Assembly: GCA_000004695.1 (NCBI GenBank)
Contig: CM000150.2
Coordinates: 2,720,001 to 2,784,000 of the forward strand
DNA: 64,000 nucleotides
DNA from: Dictyostelium discoideum
Lineage: Eukaryota
Reading direction: 5' to 3'
The position numbers were made by a program, and so were the translations under genes. This document shows, in pieces, positions 11,904 through 32,238 of the stretch. Numbering within the stretch: the stretch's first letter is position 1; every line of letters starts with the position of its first letter. A model generated the notes under the pieces. The model was given only the letters and a program-made list of their open reading frames with translations. It was not told the DNA's origin and ran no database searches.

Positions 11904-12599
11904 GTGGAAAATTCAATTTTCAATATAAAAGAAGATATTAAAAAAAAGAATGAATCAATAAATGTAACAAAAAAAATATTATTAGAGACATCAAACCTAG
12001 TTGTAAAAAATGCTCAAACCACAACCAATTTAGGTAATTTAAAGGGTGAAATTGAAAAAAAGTATGCAAAATTACAAAGTGAAATAAATAGTCTCAACAA
12101 TTACATAAATAGAGAAAGAAATGAAATTAATAATCTAAAAAGAGAAAATGACCGAAATTCACTTCCCCTGATCTTTAGGTTATTAAATCCATTTGGTGCT
12201 CTAATTGTTCTACTTTCAGATTTAAGTGGATTAAAATCAAGAGTAGCTTACAAACAAAAAGAAGTTAATAGAATGTCAAGAGAATTAGATTGTTTGACAA
12301 GCCAAAAAACACTTGTTACTCAATCACTCTCATATACTGAAAAAGAGATTGTCCAATTTAACAAAACTAAAAATTGTTTAGAGTTGTCACTCAATGGACT
12401 TGGTATTAAAAAAACTAATGATGAAAATTTAAAATTTGGATTGGAGTTATTAAAAATTGAATTTGGTATTCTTTCTGTTGACTCTGATTTAAGTAGGGAA
12501 TTATTAGAAATTGGTAGAAATCATGTTCCCAAATATGAAGAAAAATTAAAGATTTTATTCACTGAAAATAATTTAACCTTTAATTTAATTGAAAACTAA
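11904..12599 (+). CDS. Hypothetical coiled-coil ORF of 231 codons with no usable start codon; possible pseudogene.
   Basis: The track 'M' is a GTG. The only in-frame ATG (11850) is followed by an in-frame TAA at 11883, and no GT..AG intron can remove it. Confidence 0.3.
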   Translation: MENSIFNIKEDIKKKNESINVTKKILLETSNLVVKNAQTTTNLGNLKGEIEKKYAKLQSEINSLNNYINRERNEINNLKRENDRNSLPLIFRLLNPFGALIVLLSDLSGLKSRVAYKQKEVNRMSRELDCLTSQKTLVTQSLSYTEKEIVQFNKTKNCLELSLNGLGIKKTNDENLKFGLELLKIEFGILSVDSDLSRELLEIGRNHVPKYEEKLKILFTENNLTFNLIEN

Positions 12600-12720
12600 A
12601 TAAAAAACAAATAAAATTAAAATCTTTTTTTTTTTTAATTTACAATATATATTTTGTATTTTATTTATTTATTTTAACTATTACTATTTATTATTATTAT
12701 TATTGATTATTGATTATTGA

Positions 12721-13029
12721 TTATTGATTATCGATATTTTTTATGGTATCTGAAAATGTAATTTTCCTTGGAGGGACAGGAGGAGGTTGTGATTTCTTGG
12801 ATCTACCACAAACCAATTCATAGTCATCAGATTCAGTATCAGAGATTGTTTCATCAGATTCTAATCTTTTATGAGTTTTAAATGAAACACTACGTCTATT
12901 TGATGTTTTATTTTCTTCATCACTACTATCTCCATTTTCTTCACTGTTAATTTTACTATCATAATCATTATTATTATTATCGCTATTATTATCTATACTA
13001 CTATTAATATTGATATTACTATTTTTACA

Positions 13030-13098
<69 letters not shown>

Positions 13099-15675
13099 AA
13101 TATTATTATTATTTAATAATAATAATGGACTGCTTATACTATTTAAACTACTTTCAACATCAGCATCAGCATCATTGTCATCATCATTATCGGACAAAGA
13201 TAAAGATGATAATTGATCCTCTTCTTTAATTAATTGATGTTGAAGACATGATCTAAGATCTTCCATCCATTCTATTTTTTCAGTATGACTTTCTGCTAAT
13301 AGAACTAAACTAAATTCACAAGTTTCAATTTCAAAAGAGTAAACTGTATTACTTTTATTACTATTACTATTATTATTATTATTACTATTACATGATCTTC
13401 TTAATGTTTGATCCTCTGGATCAGCACTACCACTAGTAGCATCACCATTTCCACCTTCATATTCACCACCATCATCATCACCATCTACGCAAGCTTCACC
13501 TTCATCATCACTTAAAATATCAGATACATCAACAACTTGATCTAAATAGAAAACTTCTTTATATTTAAATTCTTTACCAGTTTCTTCTGATGGTTTATAT
13601 TTTACAAATAATAATAAATCACTAAATAAAAAGAAATAACTATCTTTTTTGAATGTATCTTCAATTTCTAAGAAACCTTCTCTAATATAAGTTCTTTCTT
13701 TATCCATTAAATTCTATTTTTAAATAAATAAATAAAAATAAAAATAAAAATGTTAGTTAAATATTAAAAAATAATAAATTAATAAATTAATAAAAATAAA
13801 TAACATACAAATTGTAAATTTTGAATTGAATCTTGAATTGAAAGGATTTTTCTTTTATTTTCTACAGCCATTTTTGATTCATTAACATGATCAGCAACTC
13901 TTTTAATATTTTCTTTTGCATTTTGAAGCATTTGATAATCTGGATGAGTTGAAGGTGTATATTTAATAACTTCTTTCAATAAAAGAATATATCTAACAAT
14001 TCTTTGAATTGGCATAATTAAATAACTATATAAATCCAATCCATTGTGTGTATCTTGAAATATTTCAAATGTATTTACTAATTCTTCAAAATTACTATTA
14101 CTTTTTTTTAATCTTTTAACTCTTTGATATGAATTATCATAATTATTAATATAATTTGTATAATTATCTTTTAAAAATTCACACTATTTTAATAAAATTA
14201 AAAAAATAAAAATTAGTATTAATAATTAACATATACATACAGATTTTAATTATAATAAATAATTAATACAAACTTTTTCTAAAAATACATCACCAATTGT
14301 AATATTTGAATCAAAAATACTATCACCAAAAATATTATTATGATTTTGATTTTGATTTGAATCATCAATTGTTAAATCATTAAAAGGTAAATTTAATTTT
14401 AATTTAAATTCTTTTAATAAATTAATATGAGATCTTAAAAGATGTTCCCAATTACCAAAGATTGAAGAGATTTCATCATTTGAAAGAATTGGTGAGTTTG
14501 TATCTAAAGAATTTAATAAAGGTACAATTAAGAGGTTATAAACTGTTGAGAGGGATTTAACATAACTTTGTTCAGTAGCAATGATTTCTTCAATGACTTT
14601 TTGTCTTCTAGTATCCATTGGAATTGATTTCATTTGATGATCAGTATCGAAATTCTCTCTAATTAATCTTGTGATCATACAAAGTGAATGAATATCACCA
14701 TTGAATAGATCATGTGGTGAGATATCTGAAACATTGTGAACTGAATTCTCTCTAAGGAAATTTAAAAGTAAACAAATATTTTGCATAAAATGCCATGGTA
14801 GTACAGGCTCCCTTGCGAAAATTCCGACTTTTTGTAATGTTAATTCTTCCAACAATGTCAATAACGTTACACCATTTCTCAAGTCATTAGACATATCAGA
14901 TCCAATCTGTAATGAATGATGTGCTCTCAAATGATGATTGATCCAATCTTTTAAATCTTTCATATCTTCTGGCGGTATTATTACACCACCATTACCACTA
15001 CTAGTATTACTACTACCATTACCAAACTTACTATGAATAATTGAACTATACATTTTCAATGGCGAGCCATCACTACCACCACCACCACCGATACCCCCAT
15101 TGCCACCATTGCCACCATTGCCAATATTCTTTATTAATGGTAGTTTCAAATGTGAATACATCTTATTGACATGGTTTCCTAAAACATGTATATTTGAAAT
15201 TACGAAATTTATATTCTTCTCTTCAAATAGATCAGGTGTATCGAATAAATCAGTTTTCTTTAACCCAACCACTAAACAACCTTTTAAATAATTTCCAATA
15301 TTTTCCATCTTTTTAAAACTACTATTACCATTGTTTATATAGAGTATTGTATTTGGTATGATGGTATTTATAACTCTACATAATAGAATACCATCTTTTA
15401 AAGAGGAACTAAATGACGGTAATTTAAACTTTTCTTTTGTCACCTCTTCAATCCAATCTTGTGCTGCTTTTTGAAGTTCTGGTGAGAATTTAAATGCTTC
15501 TTTAGTTCTAATATCACTATTCAATGATGATACTGCTGGTATTTTAACTGATTTTCTCCATTTAGCTTTCTTTCCATTTGATGATTTATTTAATGGATTA
15601 TTACTATAACTATTATAATTACTACTACCACCACTTGCACTCGTTATTGAAACTGGTGATAAATCACCATTACTT

Positions 15676-15712
<37 letters not shown>

Positions 15713-16502
15713 GATTACCACCAAATAATGGTGAAACTGGAGTTGTTGTAATTTTAATGATTTTTCTTTCACCTGCTAAATGTATACCATTATAACCTTC
15801 AATTTTAGAAGCATGTTTACCTAATACTACAATATTTGTAATCACTAACGAAATATCTTTATTTTCATGTAAATCGATTGAATTGAATAGGTTTACACTT
15901 TGTAAGCCTAATGTTTTACAAGCTTTTAAATAATTTTCAATATTTTCCAATTGTTTAAATGATATTGTACTTTCATTGATTCTCTTAATTGTACCACCTC
16001 TTAATTTATTAATTAATCTACATAATAATACACCATTTTTAAATAACTCATAAAAAGTTTTATCATCCTCCAATTGAATCTCCAATACATCACAAACCCA
16101 TTTTCTAGCGGTTTGTTCCAATGATGAATCATATTTAGCTTGTTTCTTCTTTTCAATATCATCTGTTAAACTTGTACATGATGGTTTCATTTGTAATGAT
16201 GTTATAACACCTTGATGTTGTTGCTGTTGTTGATGTGATGTTGATTGAATACTATTACTACTTGATGATAATAATGGTGATGGTGATGATGATAATGGTG
16301 ATATCAATGGACTTGAAACCGATGGTGATGTTATAAAATTATTACCACTCTCATTGTTTGTAATTGGTTTTGGTAATGTTGAACTACCACTATTCTTTAA
16401 TTTAGATGATTCGTCTTTACCATTATCTTTATCTTTTTTGCTACTACTACTACTACTAGCAATGGTATTTCTTTTTGAACTACCAAAAAAATTTGAAAAC
16501 AT
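12721..16502 (-). CDS. gxcB: RacGEF with three calponin-homology domains followed by DH and PH domains (Trix-type), 1198 aa. Exons about 16502..14274, 14183..13809 and 13713..12721.
   Basis: Three CH domains lie in the 750-aa ORF, for example WVCDVLEIQLEDDKTFYELFKNGVLLCRLINKL... and ...ISNIHVLG. The DH domain starts RQKVIEEIIATEQSYVKSL, runs ...IGDVFLEK|CEFLKDNYTNY...GLDLYSYLIMPIQRIVRYILLLKEV, and continues ...QNLQF|NLMDKERTYIREGFLEIED into the PH domain. Donors are gtttgt and gtatgt, acceptors aatag and aaatag. Exon lengths of 2229, 375 and 993 are all divisible by 3. The architecture and length match Dictyostelium Trix; the symbol is given with moderate confidence. Confidence 0.8.
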
Positions 16503-17131
16503 TTAATATATATATCTTTTCTTTTTTTTTTTTTTTTTTTTGGATTTGATTTTTATATCTTATTTTATTTTATTTATTGATGGCAAGTTATTTTTATTTT
16601 ATGTATATTTAAATTTAATTGATTTATTTATATTATTTATTTGTTTATTTATTTTTTTATATTTGATTATTTTTTAAATCTGATTTAATTTATTTGTTTG
16701 ATCTGATTTTATTTATTTATTTTTATTTTTAATTATTTTATTTTTAATTTTAATATATATATATTTTTATTATTACAATTATTGGTGGTTATTTTTATTT
16801 ATTGCTATTTTTAGTAATTTTGATATTTTTAGTTTTTTTTTTTTTTTATTTTTATTTTTTTTTTTTTATCTTTTTTTTTTTTTTAACCAAGATATATTAT
16901 TTTTTTATTTTTTTATTTTTTTTTAATTGCTTCTTTTGTTTATTTATTATTTATTATTATTATAATACTTTTTAAAAATAATTATTTTTATTATAATTGT
17001 TTTGAAAACAACCTCTTCGCACTATAAAAAAAAAAAAAAAAAAAAAAAAATTAAAATAAAAAAAAAAAAAAATTAAAATAAAAAAAAACTGAAAGAAAAA
17101 AAAAAAAAATTATTTGAATCCACCCCAAACC

Positions 17132-17176
<45 letters not shown>

Positions 17177-17839
17177 GATAATCGAGATGATTGGTAACTC
17201 AATATTCATATGTTTATTAATAAATATATAAAAAAAAATATATAAAAAAAGGAAAAAAAAATAAATAAAAAAAAAGGAAAAAAAAATAGATCTTGAGAAC
17301 TCAAATTAACTTGAAAATTGTGTTTTTTTTTTCCCCTTTGGTTTTTTTTTTCCCCTTTGGTTTTTTTTTTGGAAACTGTCTATCTTTTTTGATCTTTATA
17401 AATAATAAATTGTTCTTCAATTATTTGGAATAAAATTACAAGTTTAAATAAAAAGGAATTCAAGAAAAGTAAATTAATCAAATATTTTGAAAAATGGTGT
17501 TTTTTATTTTTTTTTTTTTTTTTATATTCCAATTTTCAAAGATTTCAAGTTTTACATTTATATTATTTTTAATTCAAGATTTTATTTTTGGAAAAAAAAA
17601 ATATAAAAAATAAAATAAAAAAAAAAAAAAAAAAAAAATATATCTTTTTTTTTTCTTTTTTTTCTTTTTTATTTTTTTATTTTTTTTTATTTTTTTTTCC
17701 TTCAACAAAAAAAAAAAAAAACAAATAAATTTAAATTTAGTCATTGTAGTAGTAATAATTTTATATGTTAATACTCCTAATAAAATATTAGTATATCAGG
17801 GTTATTAAAAATAAATTATTATCACTTTCATTAACTAAA

Positions 17840-17871
<32 letters not shown>

Positions 17872-18057
17872 AATAATAATACACTTATTAGTATATTTTT
17901 TATTTAACATTTAATTATCCTTTTATACATTTATACATTTATATTTATTTATAAAAAAAAAAAAAAAAAAATTCATATAGTATTTATTAGTTTTATATTT
18001 ATTTATATATATATTTAAAAAAAAAAAAAAAAAATAATAATAACCTCAATTTAAATA

Positions 18058-18940
18058 ATGTCAAATAAATCTCATACATCAGAAAAGGTTCAATTGAATG
18101 AATTTCTTCAAAAGAAAAAGCAACCCATACCAATTTATCATACTGAAAGCAAAGGATCCGAACATAATAAAGATTTTAAGGTATAAAGTGGTAATCATAG
18201 TTTGTTATAATAATTATTATTATTATTTAATATGATTACTATACAGTTTTATAGTAATCATATTAAATAATAATTATTATTATTATCACTATTATTATCT
18301 CTTTTTTTTTTTTTTTTTTTCTCTCTCTCTCTCCACCTATTATCTACTAACATTAAAAAAAAAAAAAATAAAATAAAAAATAAAAAAAATAAAAAAAATA
18401 AAACATAAAATATTTAAAGTCTATAGTAGTAGTAAATGGAAAACAAATTGAATCAGATTGGAAAAAGAGTAAAAAAGAATCTGAAAAAGATTGTGCAAAG
18501 AATATATTAGAGTTTATAGAAACACTAGATGGATATCCTATATACTTCACACCATTCAGTAAAGACCCCCCACAAAATAATAAGAAAATTTATGATGAAA
18601 AATTACAGGCAGTATACAATAGTGTCTCTTCAGGAATTGAAGGCTTAAACAATAATAGTTTTTTCACTAAAATTGAAAATAACAATAATAATAGTAGTAG
18701 TAATAATAATAATAACTTGGATCATAACCATTCAAATGACAGTAGTCATACTTCCACAGATAATAATGATAACAATAGTAATAATCATAATAATAATAAT
18801 AATAATCAAATAAACATTGATTTAACAATGGAAAATGTAAATATATCACAATCAAAAACAATCACTAACGAAGGTACCTTAAACAACGACAACGACAACA
18901 ATAACAATAGCATACAACAACAACAACACCAACCACAACC

Positions 18941-19033
<93 letters not shown>

Positions 19034-20498
19034 TTTTGATAAAGATAAAACAAATTTAAAAAAAAAAAAAAAAATTCCTTTCTCATATAATACAGACTTA
19101 ATAGAACATATTGATCTCTTTAAAAGACAAGATTTTCCACAAACTTATCCATCTCGAACAACGTATACAGATACTGGACATACACAACAATTACAAAAAC
19201 AAGTTTTCTTACTCACTGAAAAAATAGGGCTGATGGAATTATTTTATAAAAAACAAATTCGTGTCATTTTAAAATCCCATCATAATTTAGAAACAGAATT
19301 GTCAGCTCTTAAATCTTTTGTTGAAGATTGTTCTGTCACACCAATTGAAGGCCTTGAATTATATTCCATACCGGTTCCTTTAAACCCCAATGCAAAGCCT
19401 TCAGCAGGTACTACACCTGTATTGTCAAAATCAGAAACTCAAAATGAGATAATACAACCAACTAAACCACCAACTAAACCACCAGCAAGTTGTCTCATTA
19501 AAAAGAAAATACCAAATGTAAATATGAAAGCCACTAATAAAACAACAACAACAACTTCAACATCGACTTCAAATAGTTCAACAACAATAAAAACAACGGA
19601 TTCATTTAAAAATACCACTAATAATCAACATCCAAACACATTGAAACCTATGGTATCTAAAATAAACCAACAAACATCAGATTTTATTTTTCCACTACCC
19701 AAACCTATTATCAGAAGAAATCCTATTGGAAATGGTAATTTGGAAAAAAAAATAGAAAAGAAAAACTCTAAACCCAATACTATTGTTTTAGGAGTTGATA
19801 CTCAGTCACAATCAAAAACCAAAATTACACCATCACCAACAACACCACCACCAGAAACAACACCAACAACACCAACAACAACAGCAACACCAACAACACC
19901 AACAACACCAACAACACCAACAACAACAGCAACACCACCACCAACAACAACAGCAACACCACCACCAACAACAACAGCAACACCACCACCAACAGCAACA
20001 ACACCACCACCAACAACAGCAACAACAACACCACCACCACCACCAATAATAGCAACAACAAAAACAACAGCAACAGCAACAGCAACAACAATACCTATAG
20101 ATTTAAATGAAATACAGATACCAATTAGATCTCCTCAAGATTTAACAGTAAATCAATCTATGATATCAACAGCTATGATGATAGCTTCAGCGGCTCAAAG
20201 AAATCCAAAGCTAACAATGAAATTGAAAAGAAAGTTGGAAGAATCTCCAACATTGATGAGCAAACTACAAAAGATTCAATTTGAAAAAGAAGAGGAGATT
20301 TTATGTAGTCAAGACTTACATTCACCAATAATGAGTCCACAATCACCCACCCACCAACCAAAAACTTTAGAACCTCTTTCACCTACAAAGAAGAGTACTC
20401 AGAAATCACCTCCACCTACAAGCCCCTCTCCTATTGTAACAAGAGCAAGAGCTTCTTCAAATTTATTACCAATACAAAATTTAATTTCAAAAAAATAA
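18058..20498 (+). CDS. dsRNA-binding-domain protein, 733 aa, with an N-terminal dsRBD and a long polyQ / Thr-Pro-rich tail. Two exons: 18058..18180 and 18420..20498.
   Basis: Exon 1 reads MSNKSHTSEKVQLNEFLQKKKQPIPIYHTESKGSEHNKDFK. The donor gtataa is at 18181 and the acceptor (ttaaag) ends at 18419. Exon 2 reads SIVVVNGKQIESDWKKSKKESEKDCAKNILEFIE..., completing a canonical dsRBD (PxY...G..H...F...V.V.G....G.SKK.AK..AA). Exon 2 is in frame with track ORF 18717..20498. The architecture resembles the Dictyostelium RbdA/RbdB class. Confidence 0.75.
18205..18287. repeat. Near-perfect inverted repeat (hairpin with a 23-26 bp perfect stem and extended AT-rich arms) inside the intron of the dsRBD gene.
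   Basis: ttatttaatatgattactata cagtttta tagtaatcatattaaataa; the arms continue as (att/aat)n on both sides. Confidence 0.7.
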
Positions 20499-21023
20499 AA
20501 CTTTATTTAACATATAGCACCAAATTTCATTTTATACTTTTGTTTTCATGTAATAGTAGTATTAATTATAATAGCAATAAAAATTACATTTATTATATGG
20601 ATTTTTTATTTTTAATGTTTACTTTCCTATTTGGGATGAAATTATGAATCGATTGGTATTTTTAGAATTGTTTTCTTCTATACAAATTATATTCAGTTTA
20701 TATCTAATAAATATATTTTGTCGTGAATTTTAATAAAAATAAAAATTTTAATTTTTGGATTCGTTTTAGAACTCCATGATAGGATAATTTTTATTTTTAG
20801 ATTTATTTTATTTTATTTTTTTTATTTTTTTTATATTTCTATTTTTTTTATTTCTTTTTTTTTTTATTTATTTTAATAATAAAGAAAAAGTCAAAATAAA
20901 ATTAGAATATTTTTATTAGTGTATTTTAGGATCTCCAATTTTAAAAATAGCCAAACAATGTTAAATTCTTAATATATAAAAAAGTTGATTGTTTTCCTGG
21001 AAAATGTCAGCATATTTCATTAC

Positions 21024-21054
<31 letters not shown>

Positions 21055-21123
21055 TTTTTTTTTTTAATTATATAAATAGAAATTTTCTATTATTTTTTTT
21101 TTGTTTATTAATAAATTAAAAAA

Positions 21124-22151
21124 ATGTCAATATCATATAAAGATTTTAGGTATCCAGAATGTTGGAAAAGAAATCCAAATTCAAAAAATCAATATTTTGC
21201 AGAAATTTTTAAAGATTCAATTAAAGTTGGTATATATGAATTAAAAAATCAAAAACATTATTCATATATGGAGGATATTGTTGGAATTTGTAGATATTTT
21301 TATCCAACTATTGATAATGAACAATTGACATTATGTGGTACTTTTATGAATTGGTTATTCTTAATTGATGACTTTTTAGAATATTACAAGTGAAAAACAA
21401 AATGAAATTCTTAAAAGTCATGAACATATTTTATTCACTGATCAATTTTTAAATAGTGATGTTGAACCACCTACACTATGTGAAAAGTTAACAATCCTTT
21501 TACAAAATAGTTTAAAACAATGGGCTATTAAATATAAGAAATTGGAAACTTATAATATAACAATAACAACATTAATCCAATGGATGTATTCGGTGTACCC
21601 ATTAAATAAAATCTCTGATTTGACAGATCCAATTCATATGGATTTATATACATTTATTCGTAAAGTTAATTGTGGGGTTCCATCATCGATCGCTGTTGTT
21701 CTTTTAGTTGATAAAGAAATAAATGAAATTGATATTTCAAAAATTTTGTTAGATCCATTTTCACGTATTTTAGAAAATACTTCAATACACATTGGAATAA
21801 CTAATGACTGTGCCTCATATAATAGAGTTTAAAGTTGGTATTCATAAAAGCAATCCATTATACTTTTTACAAATTAATGAAAATTTATCATATGATGATA
21901 TATTAAAATCAATAATAAATAAATGCAATCAAAGAGTAAATCAAAAAGTTAATGATGAAGAATTGTTATTAAAACAATTAAAAGAACAAGGATATACTGA
22001 AAATCAATTAAATCAAGTAAATTTAATTTTAAACTATATTCATTATATTATTCAAGGTAATATAGGCTATTCAATATGTTCCAAAAGATATAATTCTATA
22101 GATCAAGAAGATAAAACCTTATTTGAAAAAAACAGATCATGTTATATATAA
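21124..22151 (+). pseudogene. Terpene synthase pseudogene, a tandem paralogue of the gene at 23300..24337.
   Basis: Three consecutive ORFs in three frames (21124..21393, 21542..21832, 21804..22151) are colinear with the intact copy. Compared with it, there is a frameshifting deletion right after LFLIDDFLE (...EYYK*) and a second 2-nt deletion plus TAA after NDCASY. Neither disruption is flanked by plausible splice sites. Confidence 0.75.
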
Positions 22152-22988
22152 TATTTTTTTAATTTGCTAAAATAAACTTTAAAACAATTAATATACTTTT
22201 TTTTTTTTTTTTTTTTTTTTATTGTTTATAATGTTTTTATTATTATTTATGTATTAGCAAACATTGAACATAATCCTTTTCAATTGGGTAATAACCACTT
22301 TGACCAAAGGCATCCTATAATCATACATGTCAATGGCACAGTGAATGTAACTTTCCAGCTTTCTTCAAACAGAGTTTCCCTTTCAGAATAGATTCCCTCC
22401 CATTTTATTATTGTTCATTTAGTTTATTTTATAAAATAATAAATATTAAATAAATATTAAATATTATTGAAAAAAAGAAAATATTAAATAAAATGGGGTT
22501 GTTGGTGGTGGGTTCGGTTGAAATTGAATAAAAAAAAATAAAAAAAAATTTCTAAAACACACTTTTTTTTATAATTTAATTTTTGTATTAAATTAAAATA
22601 TAAATAAAAAGTTTAATTTTAATTCTCAATGAAAAAAAAGATTCATTTTTTTTTTTTTGTATTTCAATATAAATTCAATATGAAAAAATATAGGATGAAT
22701 TAATAAATTTTAAAATTATAAAAAAGAATAAAAAAAAAAATTAATGAGTTATATTTATTTAAAAAACTAATTTAAAATTAATAATTACCACTAATTTAAA
22801 TTAGTATTAGAAAAATTGGCAAAAAAGATCTAAATTCTAATAAATAATTAGCCCCAAAAAAAATTAAATTTTTTAAAAAAATATTAAAAGATACATTTCC
22901 CTAAATAGTTATTATCCTATTAGGATTACCAAATTTAAAAGAATGTTTTACTTGAGTATTTTTTTTTTTTTTTTTTTTTAAAAAAAAG

Positions 22989-23068
22989 AACCAATTCTGG
23001 TTGCACCAATCTTTTTATTTTTTAAAAAAAAAAAAGAACAAATTCTGGATGCACCAATCTTTTTATTA
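22989..23068. repeat. 48-bp tandem duplication (gaac.aattctgg.tgcaccaatctttttatt, twice) about 230 bp upstream of the terpene synthase ATG.
   Basis: Read directly. The unit is GC-richer than its surroundings and may be a promoter element. Confidence 0.55.
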
Positions 23069-23299
23069 TAATACTTAAAATATTTATAGTTTAAAAAAGG
23101 GGGTGTTATTTTCATTTAAAAATGATAAAAAAACAATATATTTTTTATTTATAAAAATAATTAATTGATTTTTGGTTTTATAATTTGAAATTATATTTAA
23201 AATAAAATTAAAAACCAACTTTATATCCAATTTTTGAAAACAATAAATACAAGAAAAAAAAAAAATTTTAATTAGTTTTAAAATAAATAATTAAAAAAA

Positions 23300-24337
23300 A
23301 TGAATATTTTATTAAAAGATTTTAAATACCCAGAGTCATGGAATAAAAGCCCAAATCAAAGCAATCAATATATTGATCAAGTTTTTGAAGATACAAATAA
23401 AATTGGAATTTATGAATTAAATAATCAAGATCATTATTTATACGTAGAAAATTTATTAAATGTTACTTCTTATTTGTATCCAACCTTTGATAAAGAGCAA
23501 TTAAGATTATGTGCTACCTATTTGCATTGGTTATTTTTAATTGATGATTTTTTAGAAGACGAATACAATACAATGTCTGAAAAACAAAATGACGTTATAA
23601 AAAGTCATGCACAAATATTATTAACTGGCCAATATTTGAATAGTGATGTTGATGTGAAACCATCAGAAAAATTAACAATGTTTTTACAAAATACTTCCAA
23701 AGATTGGGCAATTAAATATAATAAATTTGATGTTCATAATATTTATATGACAACTTTATTTCAATGGTTATATTCAGTTTATCCATTAAATAAAACCACA
23801 GAATCAACCAAACCAATTCATATGGATTTATATACATTTATTCGTAAAGTTAATATTGGTGTTGCAGGTTCAATCATTGTTGGTCTTTTAGCGGATAAGG
23901 ATATTACTGATATTGATATTTCAAAAATTTGGTTAAATCCAATATTCACACGTATAATGGAAAATTCAACTATCCAAATTGGCCTTGTAAATGATTGTGC
24001 ATCCTATGACAAAGAATATGCCAATGGTGGTCACATCACTAATCCATTATACTTTTTGCAAGTTAGAGATAATTTAACATTTAATGAAACACTTAATTTT
24101 ATTGTTAATAAATGTAATCAAAGTATAGATGAAATAATTAAAGATGAGCAATTATTATTAAAACAATTAAAAGATCAAGGATATACTGAAAATCAATTAA
24201 ATCAAGTAAATATAATTTTAAATTATAATCATAATTTAATTCAAGGTAATATTAATTGGTCATTAATTTCAAAAAGATATAATAATCATGATGGTAAACC
24301 TTTTATTTTTGAAAATACAAAATCAAAATACATTTAA
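23300..24337 (+). CDS. Microbial-type (class I) terpene synthase, 345 aa, single exon.
   Basis: The aspartate-rich motif [10 protein letters not shown] (DDxxD/E) and the NSE/DTE triad NDCASYDKE are both present. The size and the absence of introns fit Dictyostelium TPS genes. Confidence 0.85.
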
Positions 24338-30015: not shown

Positions 30016-32238
30016 ATGTATATGAACAATAGTGAAATTAAAAACGAAAACGATATGGAAGATATTAATTTTTTAAAAAATTATGATAAAAACGATTTAA
30101 AACATGCAATAAAATCATTGACAGGTGTTGAGGTTAGTGATGATTTCATATCTATATTACAAAAACAAATTGCAAGTAATGGTGATACAGAGATTGATTT
30201 TGATGAGTTTAGGGAAGCATTTTCACAAATTACTAAATCATTATATCCAAATGGGATATTGGGTAATAGTGATAATCATAGTAATAATGGTGTCATTGAT
30301 GGTAATTGTAGTATGCTGCATCAAAATGGTAATAATGGATGTGAGTCTAAAACCCAATCGAACCCACCAACACCACAACCAACACCACAAAGATCTAGAA
30401 GTAATTCATGTTCATCATCAGTTTCACAATTATCAGATTTACCATCACCACCCAATTCGCCACGTAATTCAGATTCTGAGAATTCATTCTCACCATACTC
30501 ATTCTCACCATTATCTTCATCACCACCTAAATTCATTTATGCATTATCAACCTCACCTGGTGGTAGTGGTAGTGGTAGTAATAGTGGTAGTCCACCTAAA
30601 CCAACCTATTACTCAACTACGGCCAATATATTTAATAAACCACCTCCACCATTAACATCATCACCAAGACGACCAAGATCATCTTCAGTTAGACAATCAC
30701 AACCAATTGGAATTACAAAAGAGCCATTAAATGATGATCAACATATAATGTTAATGAATCATAATAGTGGAAGTAATCATCACCATCATCATCACCACCA
30801 TCATAATAATAATAATAATAATAACAATTTGGTTGGTAATAGTACATTTAATTCACCATCAGATAAATCAAAATATAAACCACAACCAACTCAAATAAAT
30901 AGTCATAGTCGTAATAATAGTCATCATAATTCACAAAATAGTTTACATACAAATCAATTATTTAAATCATTATTAAATATGGATGAAAATTATTCAGATA
31001 CAAAGAAATCTAGGTCAAAACATAGTCATCAAAGAAGGTCACCTATTGCATCAATTGAAAATTCTGATAATGAAGATAATGGTAATAATAATAATAATAA
31101 TCAATTTCATATGGATATCGATTGGTCAAAACAATTAGAGAATAAAAATAAAAAGAAATTTACATATAAAATTCAAGATGGATTAGATAATGAATCAAAT
31201 TCATCATCAGAATCTGAAGATATATATAATACTTTAAATTTTAATTTTAATAATAATAATAATAAAAAGCATAGTAGTAAAAAAAGTAATAAAAAAAGTA
31301 GTAGTAATAATAAAAACAATAATAATAAATTTAAAGATGAAATTGAATGGGCAACAGAAGAATTTTATTATGATCCAACATTAGACAATTCAGAGGATTT
31401 ACATCAAGTTATATCAATTTTAAAGGAGAAGTATTCATTATATTCAAATAAATCTAGTGAACTAGAGAAAAAGGTACAAACTGCATTGAAAACTAATAAT
31501 CAATTAGAGGATGATTTAGATGTAATAAAAAAGGATTGTATAACATTATCATTATCTAATCAAGCATTGAAAAAGAATAATCAAATTTTAGAATCATCAT
31601 TAGAGTATCATAATACAACCAATGCTCAAATTAAACAGAGTTGTTTCAATTTGGAGAAGGAGAATCAAATTCTAAAGAAAAGATTACAACTATTTGAAGA
31701 TCAAATGGAAAAGAATCAATTACTATTGGAGAACCAAAGATTGGAGCAGGAATTACGTGATTCCAAATTCAATTCAGAGATTGAATTATTGTCAACACAA
31801 TATTCTAAAACTATTCAATCGATTAAATCAGAGTATCAGAAAGAGTTTGAATTGGAATATAAGAAAAATAAAGATTTATTAACAAAGAATGAATTGAAAT
31901 CAATGGAGATTCAATTGGAGAATCAACAATTACGTCAACTACTATTGGAATCCAATAAGAATTTAGAACATCTTGAAAAACTTTATGATGAAAAGATTAA
32001 AGAATATCAATCTCATCAAGAGGAATCTCAAAGTCAAACAATCTCTCAAGAAATCCTATCAACTGAAAATCAAAAATTAAAGAAACAACTTAAAAAGAGT
32101 GAATTACAAAAGATTCTTGAATTGAAAAATGAAATTAAACGTACGAAAAAAGAACATCTTCATTATAAATCATTATTACTTCAAGGTATTAATGATTTTA
32201 AAACAATTGAATCTTCAATTAATAAATTTAATAAATAA
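30016..32238 (+). CDS. EF-hand-like N-terminus, low-complexity middle and long C-terminal coiled coil; 740 aa; function unknown.
   Basis: Real ATG at 30016. ...DTEIDFDEFREAF is a Ca-binding-loop-like EF-hand segment. The C-terminal 300 aa are heptad-rich (LEKENQILKKRLQLFEDQMEKNQ...). Confidence 0.65.
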   Translation: MYMNNSEIKNENDMEDINFLKNYDKNDLKHAIKSLTGVEVSDDFISILQKQIASNGDTEIDFDEFREAFSQITKSLYPNGILGNSDNHSNNGVIDGNCSMLHQNGNNGCESKTQSNPPTPQPTPQRSRSNSCSSSVSQLSDLPSPPNSPRNSDSENSFSPYSFSPLSSSPPKFIYALSTSPGGSGSGSNSGSPPKPTYYSTTANIFNKPPPPLTSSPRRPRSSSVRQSQPIGITKEPLNDDQHIMLMNHNSGSNHHHHHHHHHNNNNNNNNLVGNSTFNSPSDKSKYKPQPTQINSHSRNNSHHNSQNSLHTNQLFKSLLNMDENYSDTKKSRSKHSHQRRSPIASIENSDNEDNGNNNNNNQFHMDIDWSKQLENKNKKKFTYKIQDGLDNESNSSSESEDIYNTLNFNFNNNNNKKHSSKKSNKKSSSNNKNNNNKFKDEIEWATEEFYYDPTLDNSEDLHQVISILKEKYSLYSNKSSELEKKVQTALKTNNQLEDDLDVIKKDCITLSLSNQALKKNNQILESSLEYHNTTNAQIKQSCFNLEKENQILKKRLQLFEDQMEKNQLLLENQRLEQELRDSKFNSEIELLSTQYSKTIQSIKSEYQKEFELEYKKNKDLLTKNELKSMEIQLENQQLRQLLLESNKNLEHLEKLYDEKIKEYQSHQEESQSQTISQEILSTENQKLKKQLKKSELQKILELKNEIKRTKKEHLHYKSLLLQGINDFKTIESSINKFNK

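Follow-up and report, generated by a model that had tools for sequence, protein, structure and literature searches.

Why does the only intron of rbdB, the Dictyostelium discoideum gene for the partner of the Dicer-like protein DrnB in the Dictyostelium microprocessor (PMC4894637), contain a long and perfectly paired hairpin? The gene lies in a window of 64,000 nucleotides, by which we mean the whole stretch of DNA analysed here (assembly GCA_000004695.1, contig CM000150.2, positions 2,720,001 to 2,784,000 of the forward strand), and positions below are counted from the first letter of that window. Comparison with the orthologous introns of three closely related genomes indicated that the hairpin is probably, though by no means certainly, a recent inverted duplication restricted to one species; it would fold back on itself in the pre-mRNA, be spliced out with the intron and serve no dedicated function. 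If so, rbdB provides a natural, non-animal example of a perfect intronic RNA hairpin that arose in one mutational step and then decayed or was deleted, with the source arm, the derived palindrome and the putative secondary deletion all visible in four closely related genomes.

The identity of the host gene is clear. It runs on the forward strand from 18058 to 20498, and its spliced product of 733 amino acids has the published length of RbdB (DDB_G0269426, Q55E25; PMC4894637). This length, a single N-terminal double-stranded RNA-binding domain (dsRBD), a proline/threonine-rich (P/T-rich) tract at the expected place (published residues ~511-584) and a C-terminal basic region with the nuclear localization signal (NLS) all agree with the published protein, which identifies the gene as rbdB; the domain layout of the second exon is likewise consistent with that description (PMC4894637). 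The first-pass annotation of the window, made from the letters alone, had proposed an RbdB-like gene whose dsRBD is split by one intron of 239 nt, and this proved accurate: Pfam dsrm matches residues 12-72 (E = 3e-16), so that an intron after codon 41 interrupts the domain. That there is a single intron also follows from the annotated orthologue in one of the relatives described below (L001), whose 2122 nt are made up of a 1941-nt coding sequence (CDS) and a 181-nt intron. The window as a whole is 77% A+T.

The hairpin was found largely as it had first been described, with corrections in detail. A perfect repeat of 23-26 bp around an 8-nt loop had been reported, with AT-rich arms extending over 18205-18287; the perfect core is indeed 25 bp long and the extended arms are real, but the loop is the 6-nt CAGUUU and the arms reach from 18204 to 18289. 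Across their 40 nt, the arms are complementary at 37 positions, including all 25 of the core, and a basal stem brings the complete hairpin to 111 nt and about 46 bp. Its minimum free energy (MFE) is -37.6 kcal/mol at 37 C (z = -9.6), a value that none of 200 dinucleotide shuffles equalled, so that the stability suspected from the letters was confirmed by folding. At 22 C, the folding temperature of Dictyostelium studies, the MFE is -52.0 kcal/mol, and the energies per nucleotide are -0.34 and -0.47 kcal/mol/nt at 37 and 22 C, respectively. The fold of the entire intron gave z = -8.0. Because the hairpin is a palindrome at the DNA level, its antisense strand folds almost as stably (z = -9.0), and its GC content is 12%.

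An intron this rich in A and T and of low complexity might be expected to produce palindromes by chance, and the outer parts of the arms are indeed (ATT)n/(AAT)n-like and partly self-complementary. The core is non-repetitive (AATATGATTACTATA), however, and with the composition of the intron (a per-position match probability of 0.383) and loops of 3-12 nt, perfect 25-bp stems are expected 2e-5 times per 64 kb, or about 0.013 times per 34-Mb genome. A survey of the window for perfect stems of at least 14 bp with the same range of loops returned seven; the one in the rbdB intron is the longest and alone has an arm that is not a homopolymer or a short A/T repeat, whereas the remaining six are pairs of A/T runs no longer than 18 bp, the next-longest being homopolymer pairs. 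The earlier suspicion that such a stem is unusual beyond what AT-richness explains was therefore upheld. A sliding MFE scan (110 nt, both strands) placed the hairpin third among 12,778 windows and first among the 3,330 with a GC content below 0.15. Shuffles, stem survey, MFE scan and expectation together leave a chance palindrome next to no probability, and we regard it as effectively refuted. A stem this far beyond chance (~0.013 per genome) requires a mutational mechanism that makes it in one step.

To place the hairpin in an evolutionary context, we compared the intron with its orthologues in a second D. discoideum assembly (L002, GCA_054859355.1) and in two assemblies labelled "D. cf. discoideum" (L001, GCA_054859205.1; L003, GCA_054859235.1). 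A protein search with RbdB led to one relative only and a profile search with the N-terminal dsRBD found no relatives; the other loci were reached through the divergently transcribed neighbour, a RhoGEF gene. CDS identity to the window is 96.5% for L002, 94.5% for L001 and 88% for L003, giving the tree ((window, L002), L001), L003. The intron occupies the identical position in all four genes, with lengths of 294 nt in L002, 181 nt in L001 and 224 nt in L003. The hairpin is present in the window and in L002, where it folds at -41.1 kcal/mol (z = -10.4), and it is absent from both L001 (5.5% CDS divergence) and L003 (12%). Conservation among orthologues, which the first-pass annotation had named as a check on function, thus failed: only L002 keeps the structure. 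An assembly artefact was rejected as well, as the independent L002 assembly also has the hairpin.

What the non-carriers hold in its place is informative. The L003 intron contains an orthologue of the 5' arm and a loop-like sequence (GTTTGTTATAAT...AAGATTACTATA AAATTT) that is followed directly by ATTATTATCTCT; the 3' arm, 40-41 nt, is missing. Since GATTACTATA in this stretch includes the rare G and C of the intron, the match to the 5' arm reflects homology and not chance. Aligned with its L003 orthologue, the 5' arm of the window agrees at 33 of 41 positions, and indels are needed. The two arms of the hairpin are therefore more alike (25/25 in the core, 37/40 overall) than the source arm and its L003 orthologue, which argues that a discoideum-type 5' arm served as the source of the 3' arm once the L003 lineage had split off. 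An older hairpin would need continuous homogenisation of its arms. The 3' arm is, moreover, the reverse complement of the sequence immediately next to it, and L003, a single outgroup, has the source copy without the inverted one.

These relations are what a replication template switch would leave behind. Template switching is documented to create perfect hairpins in a single event, and most of these hairpins lie in introns and are neutral for the gene that hosts them (PMC10710096; PMC8794818). We propose that by such a snap-back event 40 nt of the AT-rich rbdB intron may have been copied as their reverse complement directly downstream, at a time after the split from the L003 "cf. discoideum" lineage when the two D. 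discoideum genomes sampled here had yet to diverge. The long perfect stem is best explained as a sign of recent origin rather than of selection. Transcribed as part of the rbdB pre-mRNA, the ~46-bp fold would take 111 of the intron's 239 nt out of the path that leads from the 5' splice site to the pyrimidine tract and the candidate branch site, and it would be removed with the intron. Its intronic location and its folding upon itself may be why it is tolerated.

The absence from L001 would then call for a second event. This intron lacks the core of the hairpin and reads ...AATAATAATTATTATTA|CACTATTATTATC..., the gap corresponding to the 60 nt between the direct repeats TAATAATTATTATTATTA, and it retains the CAC that closes the 3' arm. 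The retained CAC and a gap bounded by direct repeats are best read as a secondary deletion in the L001 lineage, in which slippage between the two 18-nt repeats probably took out the core of the palindrome. Deletion between flanking repeats is a classical fate of palindromes. The intron site seems palindrome-prone in any case, as a different AT palindrome, of 12 bp, occurs in the orthologous stretch of L003.

The same presence and absence among close relatives, together with long terminal inverted arms around a short centre, might also suggest a small foldback or miniature inverted-repeat transposable element (MITE)-like transposon inserted into the intron, and thug-S elements in the D. discoideum genome are known sources of microRNAs (miRNAs). 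Several observations make this highly improbable. The 5' arm was already resident in the outgroup L003 and only the 3' arm is new, for which reason we rejected transposon insertion. The 64-kb window contains the hairpin core only once, and the ends of the arms show no target-site duplication; both 18-nt direct repeats fall within the arms and not outside them.

Sequence changes between the two carriers gave a picture of the hairpin after its origin. The 3' arms of the window and L002 are identical, the 5' arms differ by two changes (a pair against a mismatch, and A-U against G.U), and the loops read CAGTTT and CAAATTT. Two differences in 80 arm positions correspond to the ~2.5% mismatches counted across 4.6 kb of flanking sequence, and two more mismatches are common to both carriers. 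No compensatory double substitutions were found between the window and L002, a comparison of two sequences with very low power. With that same limit on power, the pattern would fit a once-perfect duplicate that is decaying at about the neutral rate, its arms having gathered uncompensated mismatches since their origin.

A number of points weigh against a recent neutral duplication. The sample is small, with two carriers and two non-carriers, and parsimony leaves the polarity undecided, since an ancestral hairpin lost twice also amounts to two events; the polarity, and with it the rejection of a precise deletion, would follow from the one argument of identity between the arms and the L003 orthologue. 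Neutrality, similarly, is suggested by a single observation, the lack of conservation. The other orthologues can also form a hairpin at the same place, a weak basal one in L001 (z = -2.0) and a moderate one in L003 (z = -4.0). The A to G change in the L002 core keeps the pairing of the sense strand (G.U) and breaks that of the antisense strand, although as a single case it has no weight. Finally, the host gene encodes a dsRNA-binding factor of miRNA processing, a coincidence that the neutral model leaves unexplained.

This coincidence leads directly to the question of function. It had been proposed that the hairpin resembles those of DGCR8 mRNA and might be an autoregulatory element or a precursor of miRNAs or small interfering RNAs (siRNAs); the structure and the identity of the gene on which this interpretation was built have held, whereas the role itself gained no positive support. 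The idea can be put as follows: the hairpin would be a substrate of the DrnB/RbdB microprocessor and a newborn miRNA-like locus, cropped from the rbdB pre-mRNA into 21-nt RNAs, possibly as two adjacent duplexes, and perhaps feeding back on its host, with less productive rbdB mRNA as negative feedback in the manner of DCL1 intron 14/miR838 or Drosha-DGCR8. We consider this unlikely, though not far-fetched. A stable hairpin does lie in the processing factor's own pre-mRNA, in sense orientation within a transcribed gene, and its ~46-bp stem and small loop leave room for a pair of 21-nt duplexes, an arrangement reported for mir-1180 and mir-7102. Its structure is in line with the miRBase criteria (below -0.2 kcal/mol/nt and at least 60% duplex pairing; the core is 100% paired), AT-rich miRNAs such as mir-1178 occur in D. 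discoideum, and the A to G change in L002 would keep a sense-strand precursor paired. Intronic template-switch hairpins are, in addition, a documented source of new miRNAs (PMC10710096), and DCL1/miR838 is a precedent for feedback through an intronic hairpin in the gene of a processing factor (PMC12825306).

Against these points, the locus is unreported in the D. discoideum small-RNA surveys consulted (Hinas 2007; Meier 2016; Liao 2018 and its supplement). Liao 2018, whose count incorporates Avesson 2012, lists 29 D. discoideum miRNAs; the two that it counts as intronic are mir-1180 (in DDB_G0293106) and mir-7102 (in DDB_G0284713), not in rbdB, and by its table mir-1182 lies opposite an intron of DDB_G0280709, on the antisense strand (PMC6161686). 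None of the published D. discoideum miRNA sequences (Liao 2018, Meier 2016) occurs in the 64-kb window. Rfam gave nothing relevant in an E-value scan of 17000-20000 or in a gathering-threshold scan of the whole window, and a full-text search with 14-mers of the hairpin core had as its sole match an unrelated C. elegans paper. At 12% GC the hairpin departs from Dictyostelid miRNAs, whose AT content has been described as considerably lower than that of the surrounding sequence, and per nucleotide it is less stable than the 12 loci in Table S1 of Liao 2018 (-0.51 to -0.73 kcal/mol/nt; PMC6161686). Long stems that pair almost perfectly usually behave as siRNA-like and not as miRNA-like substrates. 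Lastly, the hairpin is missing from L001 and L003, and a structure absent from two close relatives cannot be an essential regulator of rbdB.

One form of the idea is a feedback loop caught at its birth: a template-switch hairpin that is cropped into one or two 21-nt duplexes, with transcripts partly diverted from productive splicing. We hold this to be decidedly unlikely. Cutting an intronic hairpin need not lower mRNA output, as animal intronic miRNAs illustrate. Meier et al. 2016 rescued rbdB- strains with genomic constructs that contain the intron, and neither that paper nor Kruse et al. 2016 mentions the rbdB intron, a feedback loop or autoregulation. Were the loop real, the miRNA machinery would have come to regulate itself by way of a hairpin in one of its own transcripts a third time, independently and in Amoebozoa; the other two cases are Drosha-DGCR8 in animals and DCL1-miR838 in plants. 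The sister lineages would then carry natural 'deletion alleles' as ready-made controls. Processing would make the hairpin matter more, as rbdB codes for the dsRNA-binding half of the Dictyostelium microprocessor and the locus would show the birth of an autoregulatory loop. On the evidence above, a hairpin without dedicated function is the most likely case.

The position of the hairpin within the intron raises one further possibility, that it is kept as an aid to splicing. It begins 9 nt past the 5' splice site, and its 3' end is closely followed by the T19/(CT)n tract and a TACTAAC motif. Folding would shorten the effective distance from the 5' splice site to the branch site and pyrimidine tract from ~165 to ~55 nt and offset the longer intron. 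In yeast, introns are known to pair internally and thereby to bring their splice signals together. Pairing of GGUA(A/G)U.AUAGU with ACUAU...AUUAUC further downstream is possible in each of the four orthologous introns and would close off the intervening sequence. The basal stem of L001 barely beats its shuffles, however, and that lineage, with its 181-nt intron, needs no such aid; the benefit would only cancel the cost of the insertion and would be indistinguishable from neutrality. The missing compensatory changes between the window and L002 also speak against selection on pairing, and the L002 intron has reached 294 nt by growth of (CT)n outside the hairpin, which shows that length is not tightly constrained. 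A selected role in splicing is therefore improbable, and we retain the young, neutral duplication as our reading of the locus.

The coordinates of the hairpin and of the features around it are collected in the table below. Several observations concern other parts of the intron, the protein and the relatives. The (CT)n microsatellite, ~7 units at 18320-18334 in the window, has undergone a large expansion in L002 (4150-4258, - strand), where it makes up ~150 nt of the intron and accounts for its length of 294 nt against 239; in L003, (ATTTT)n stands in its place. RbdB is 733, 646, 723 and 762 amino acids long in the window, L001, L002 and L003, respectively, and by eye much of the gap between the window and L001 falls in repeats (poly-Q/poly-N and P/T-rich). 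The dsRBD is 98% identical to that of the window in both L001 and L002 and 87% in L003. Between the window and L002 (within ~7700-22100), we counted ~2.5% mismatches and many indels over 4.6 kb; this seems high for one species, and the labels 'D. discoideum' and 'cf. discoideum' may conceal a species complex. The RhoGEF neighbourhood of D. purpureum (GL870965.1), searched by tblastn, is not syntenic and has no rbdB: the head-to-head order of rbdB and RhoGEF in the D. discoideum group is broken there, with a BRR2-type helicase gene and a gene of 169 amino acids upstream of RhoGEF.

Table. Features of the rbdB gene and of its intronic hairpin, in window coordinates.
Feature	Coordinates	Strand	Description
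rbdB exon 1	18058..18180	+	123 nt, 41 codons; N-terminal half of the dsRBD; ATG at 18058, ends ...NKDFK
Sole rbdB intron	18181..18419	+	GT...AG, 239 nt, 87% A+T
Full hairpin	18190..18300	+	111 nt, ~46 bp; includes basal stem GGUAAU.AUAGU / ACUAU.AUUAUC
5' arm	18204..18243	+	40 nt; resident sequence; L003 orthologue GTTATAAT...GATTACTATA
Direct repeat TAATAATTATTATTATTA, copy 1	18208..18225	+	18 nt; with copy 2 bounds the 60 nt missing in L001
5' half of perfect 25-bp core	18219..18243	+	pairs with 18250-18274
Loop	18244..18249	+	CAGTTT (RNA CAGUUU), 6 nt; CAAATTT in L002; AAATTT at the same place in L003
3' arm	18250..18289	+	40 nt; probable inverted duplicate; absent in L003 and L001; window identical to L002
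Direct repeat TAATAATTATTATTATTA, copy 2	18268..18285	+	18 nt; inside the arm
T19 run and (CT)n microsatellite	18302..18334	+	pyrimidine tract 3' of the hairpin
Candidate branch site TACTAAC	18345..18351	+	consensus match only; TAACATT kept in 4/4 orthologous introns
rbdB exon 2	18420..20498	+	2079 nt; starts SIVVVNG; rest of the dsRBD, N/Q-rich, P/T-rich and C-terminal NLS regions

Two other structures ranked ahead of the rbdB hairpin in the MFE scan. An intergenic hairpin at ~3385-3555 (+) is imperfect, with ~70 bp in 171 nt, and folds at -59.9 kcal/mol (z = -11.2); its GC content of ~27% is well above the intergenic background, and it resembles a miRNA precursor or a foldback element. It had no match in Rfam, among the published D. 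discoideum miRNA sequences checked, or in the full-text search. The top 110-nt window of the scan, 30781-30890 (-), falls within coding repeats in which CAT/CAC His codons oppose AAT/AAC runs, and is thus a repeat artefact rather than a structured RNA. Directly downstream of rbdB lie tandem terpene-synthase-like genes (Pfam Terpene_syn_C_2 by the annotation of L001 and L003), at ~21124-24337 (+) in the window and 7964-12122 in L001; the copies of the window are ~77% identical to the orthologue of the neighbouring copy (blastn, L001 against the window).

How does the rbdB hairpin compare with known systems? The hairpins of DGCR8 mRNA lie in the 5' untranslated region and a coding exon, are conserved across vertebrates, and their cleavage by Drosha destroys the mRNA. 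The rbdB hairpin is likewise a stem-loop in the transcript of a microprocessor's dsRNA-binding cofactor, but it is confined to D. discoideum, and because it is intronic rather than exonic, its cleavage need not destroy the message. A closer parallel in position is intron 14 of Arabidopsis DCL1 with miR838 (PMC12825306), another intronic hairpin in the pre-mRNA of a core miRNA-processing factor, and the foci of DrnB and RbdB have themselves been described as reminiscent of plant dicing bodies (PMC4894637). The differences are that rbdB encodes the dsRBD partner and DCL1 the nuclease, and that processing and non-productive transcript fragments are documented for DCL1, whereas the rbdB hairpin is known as a sequence. 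Within the same organism, mir-1180 and mir-7102 (PMC6161686) are also long sense intronic hairpins with room for two adjacent duplexes. At 149-153 nt, with -0.53 and -0.62 kcal/mol/nt, a clearly less AT-rich composition and DrnB-dependent reads, they stand apart from the rbdB hairpin with its 111 nt, 12% GC, -0.34 (37 C) or -0.47 (22 C) kcal/mol/nt and no reported reads.

The strongest resemblance is to hairpins generated by template-switch mutation (TSM) (Monttinen et al. 2023, PMC10710096; Monttinen and Loytynoja 2022, PMC8794818). There, too, a perfect stem arises in one step as the reverse complement of adjacent sequence and the outgroup has the source arm only, and the rbdB hairpin is similarly lineage-specific and young. 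TSM hairpins have been described in primates and mice, whereas the present case is amoebozoan, in a genome of ~78% A+T, with a longer stem (40-nt arms) and with switch points placed by eye from four sequences rather than by the published four-point model. That the rbdB hairpin belongs to this known class of intronic hairpins is nevertheless the best explanation for its structure and its distribution.

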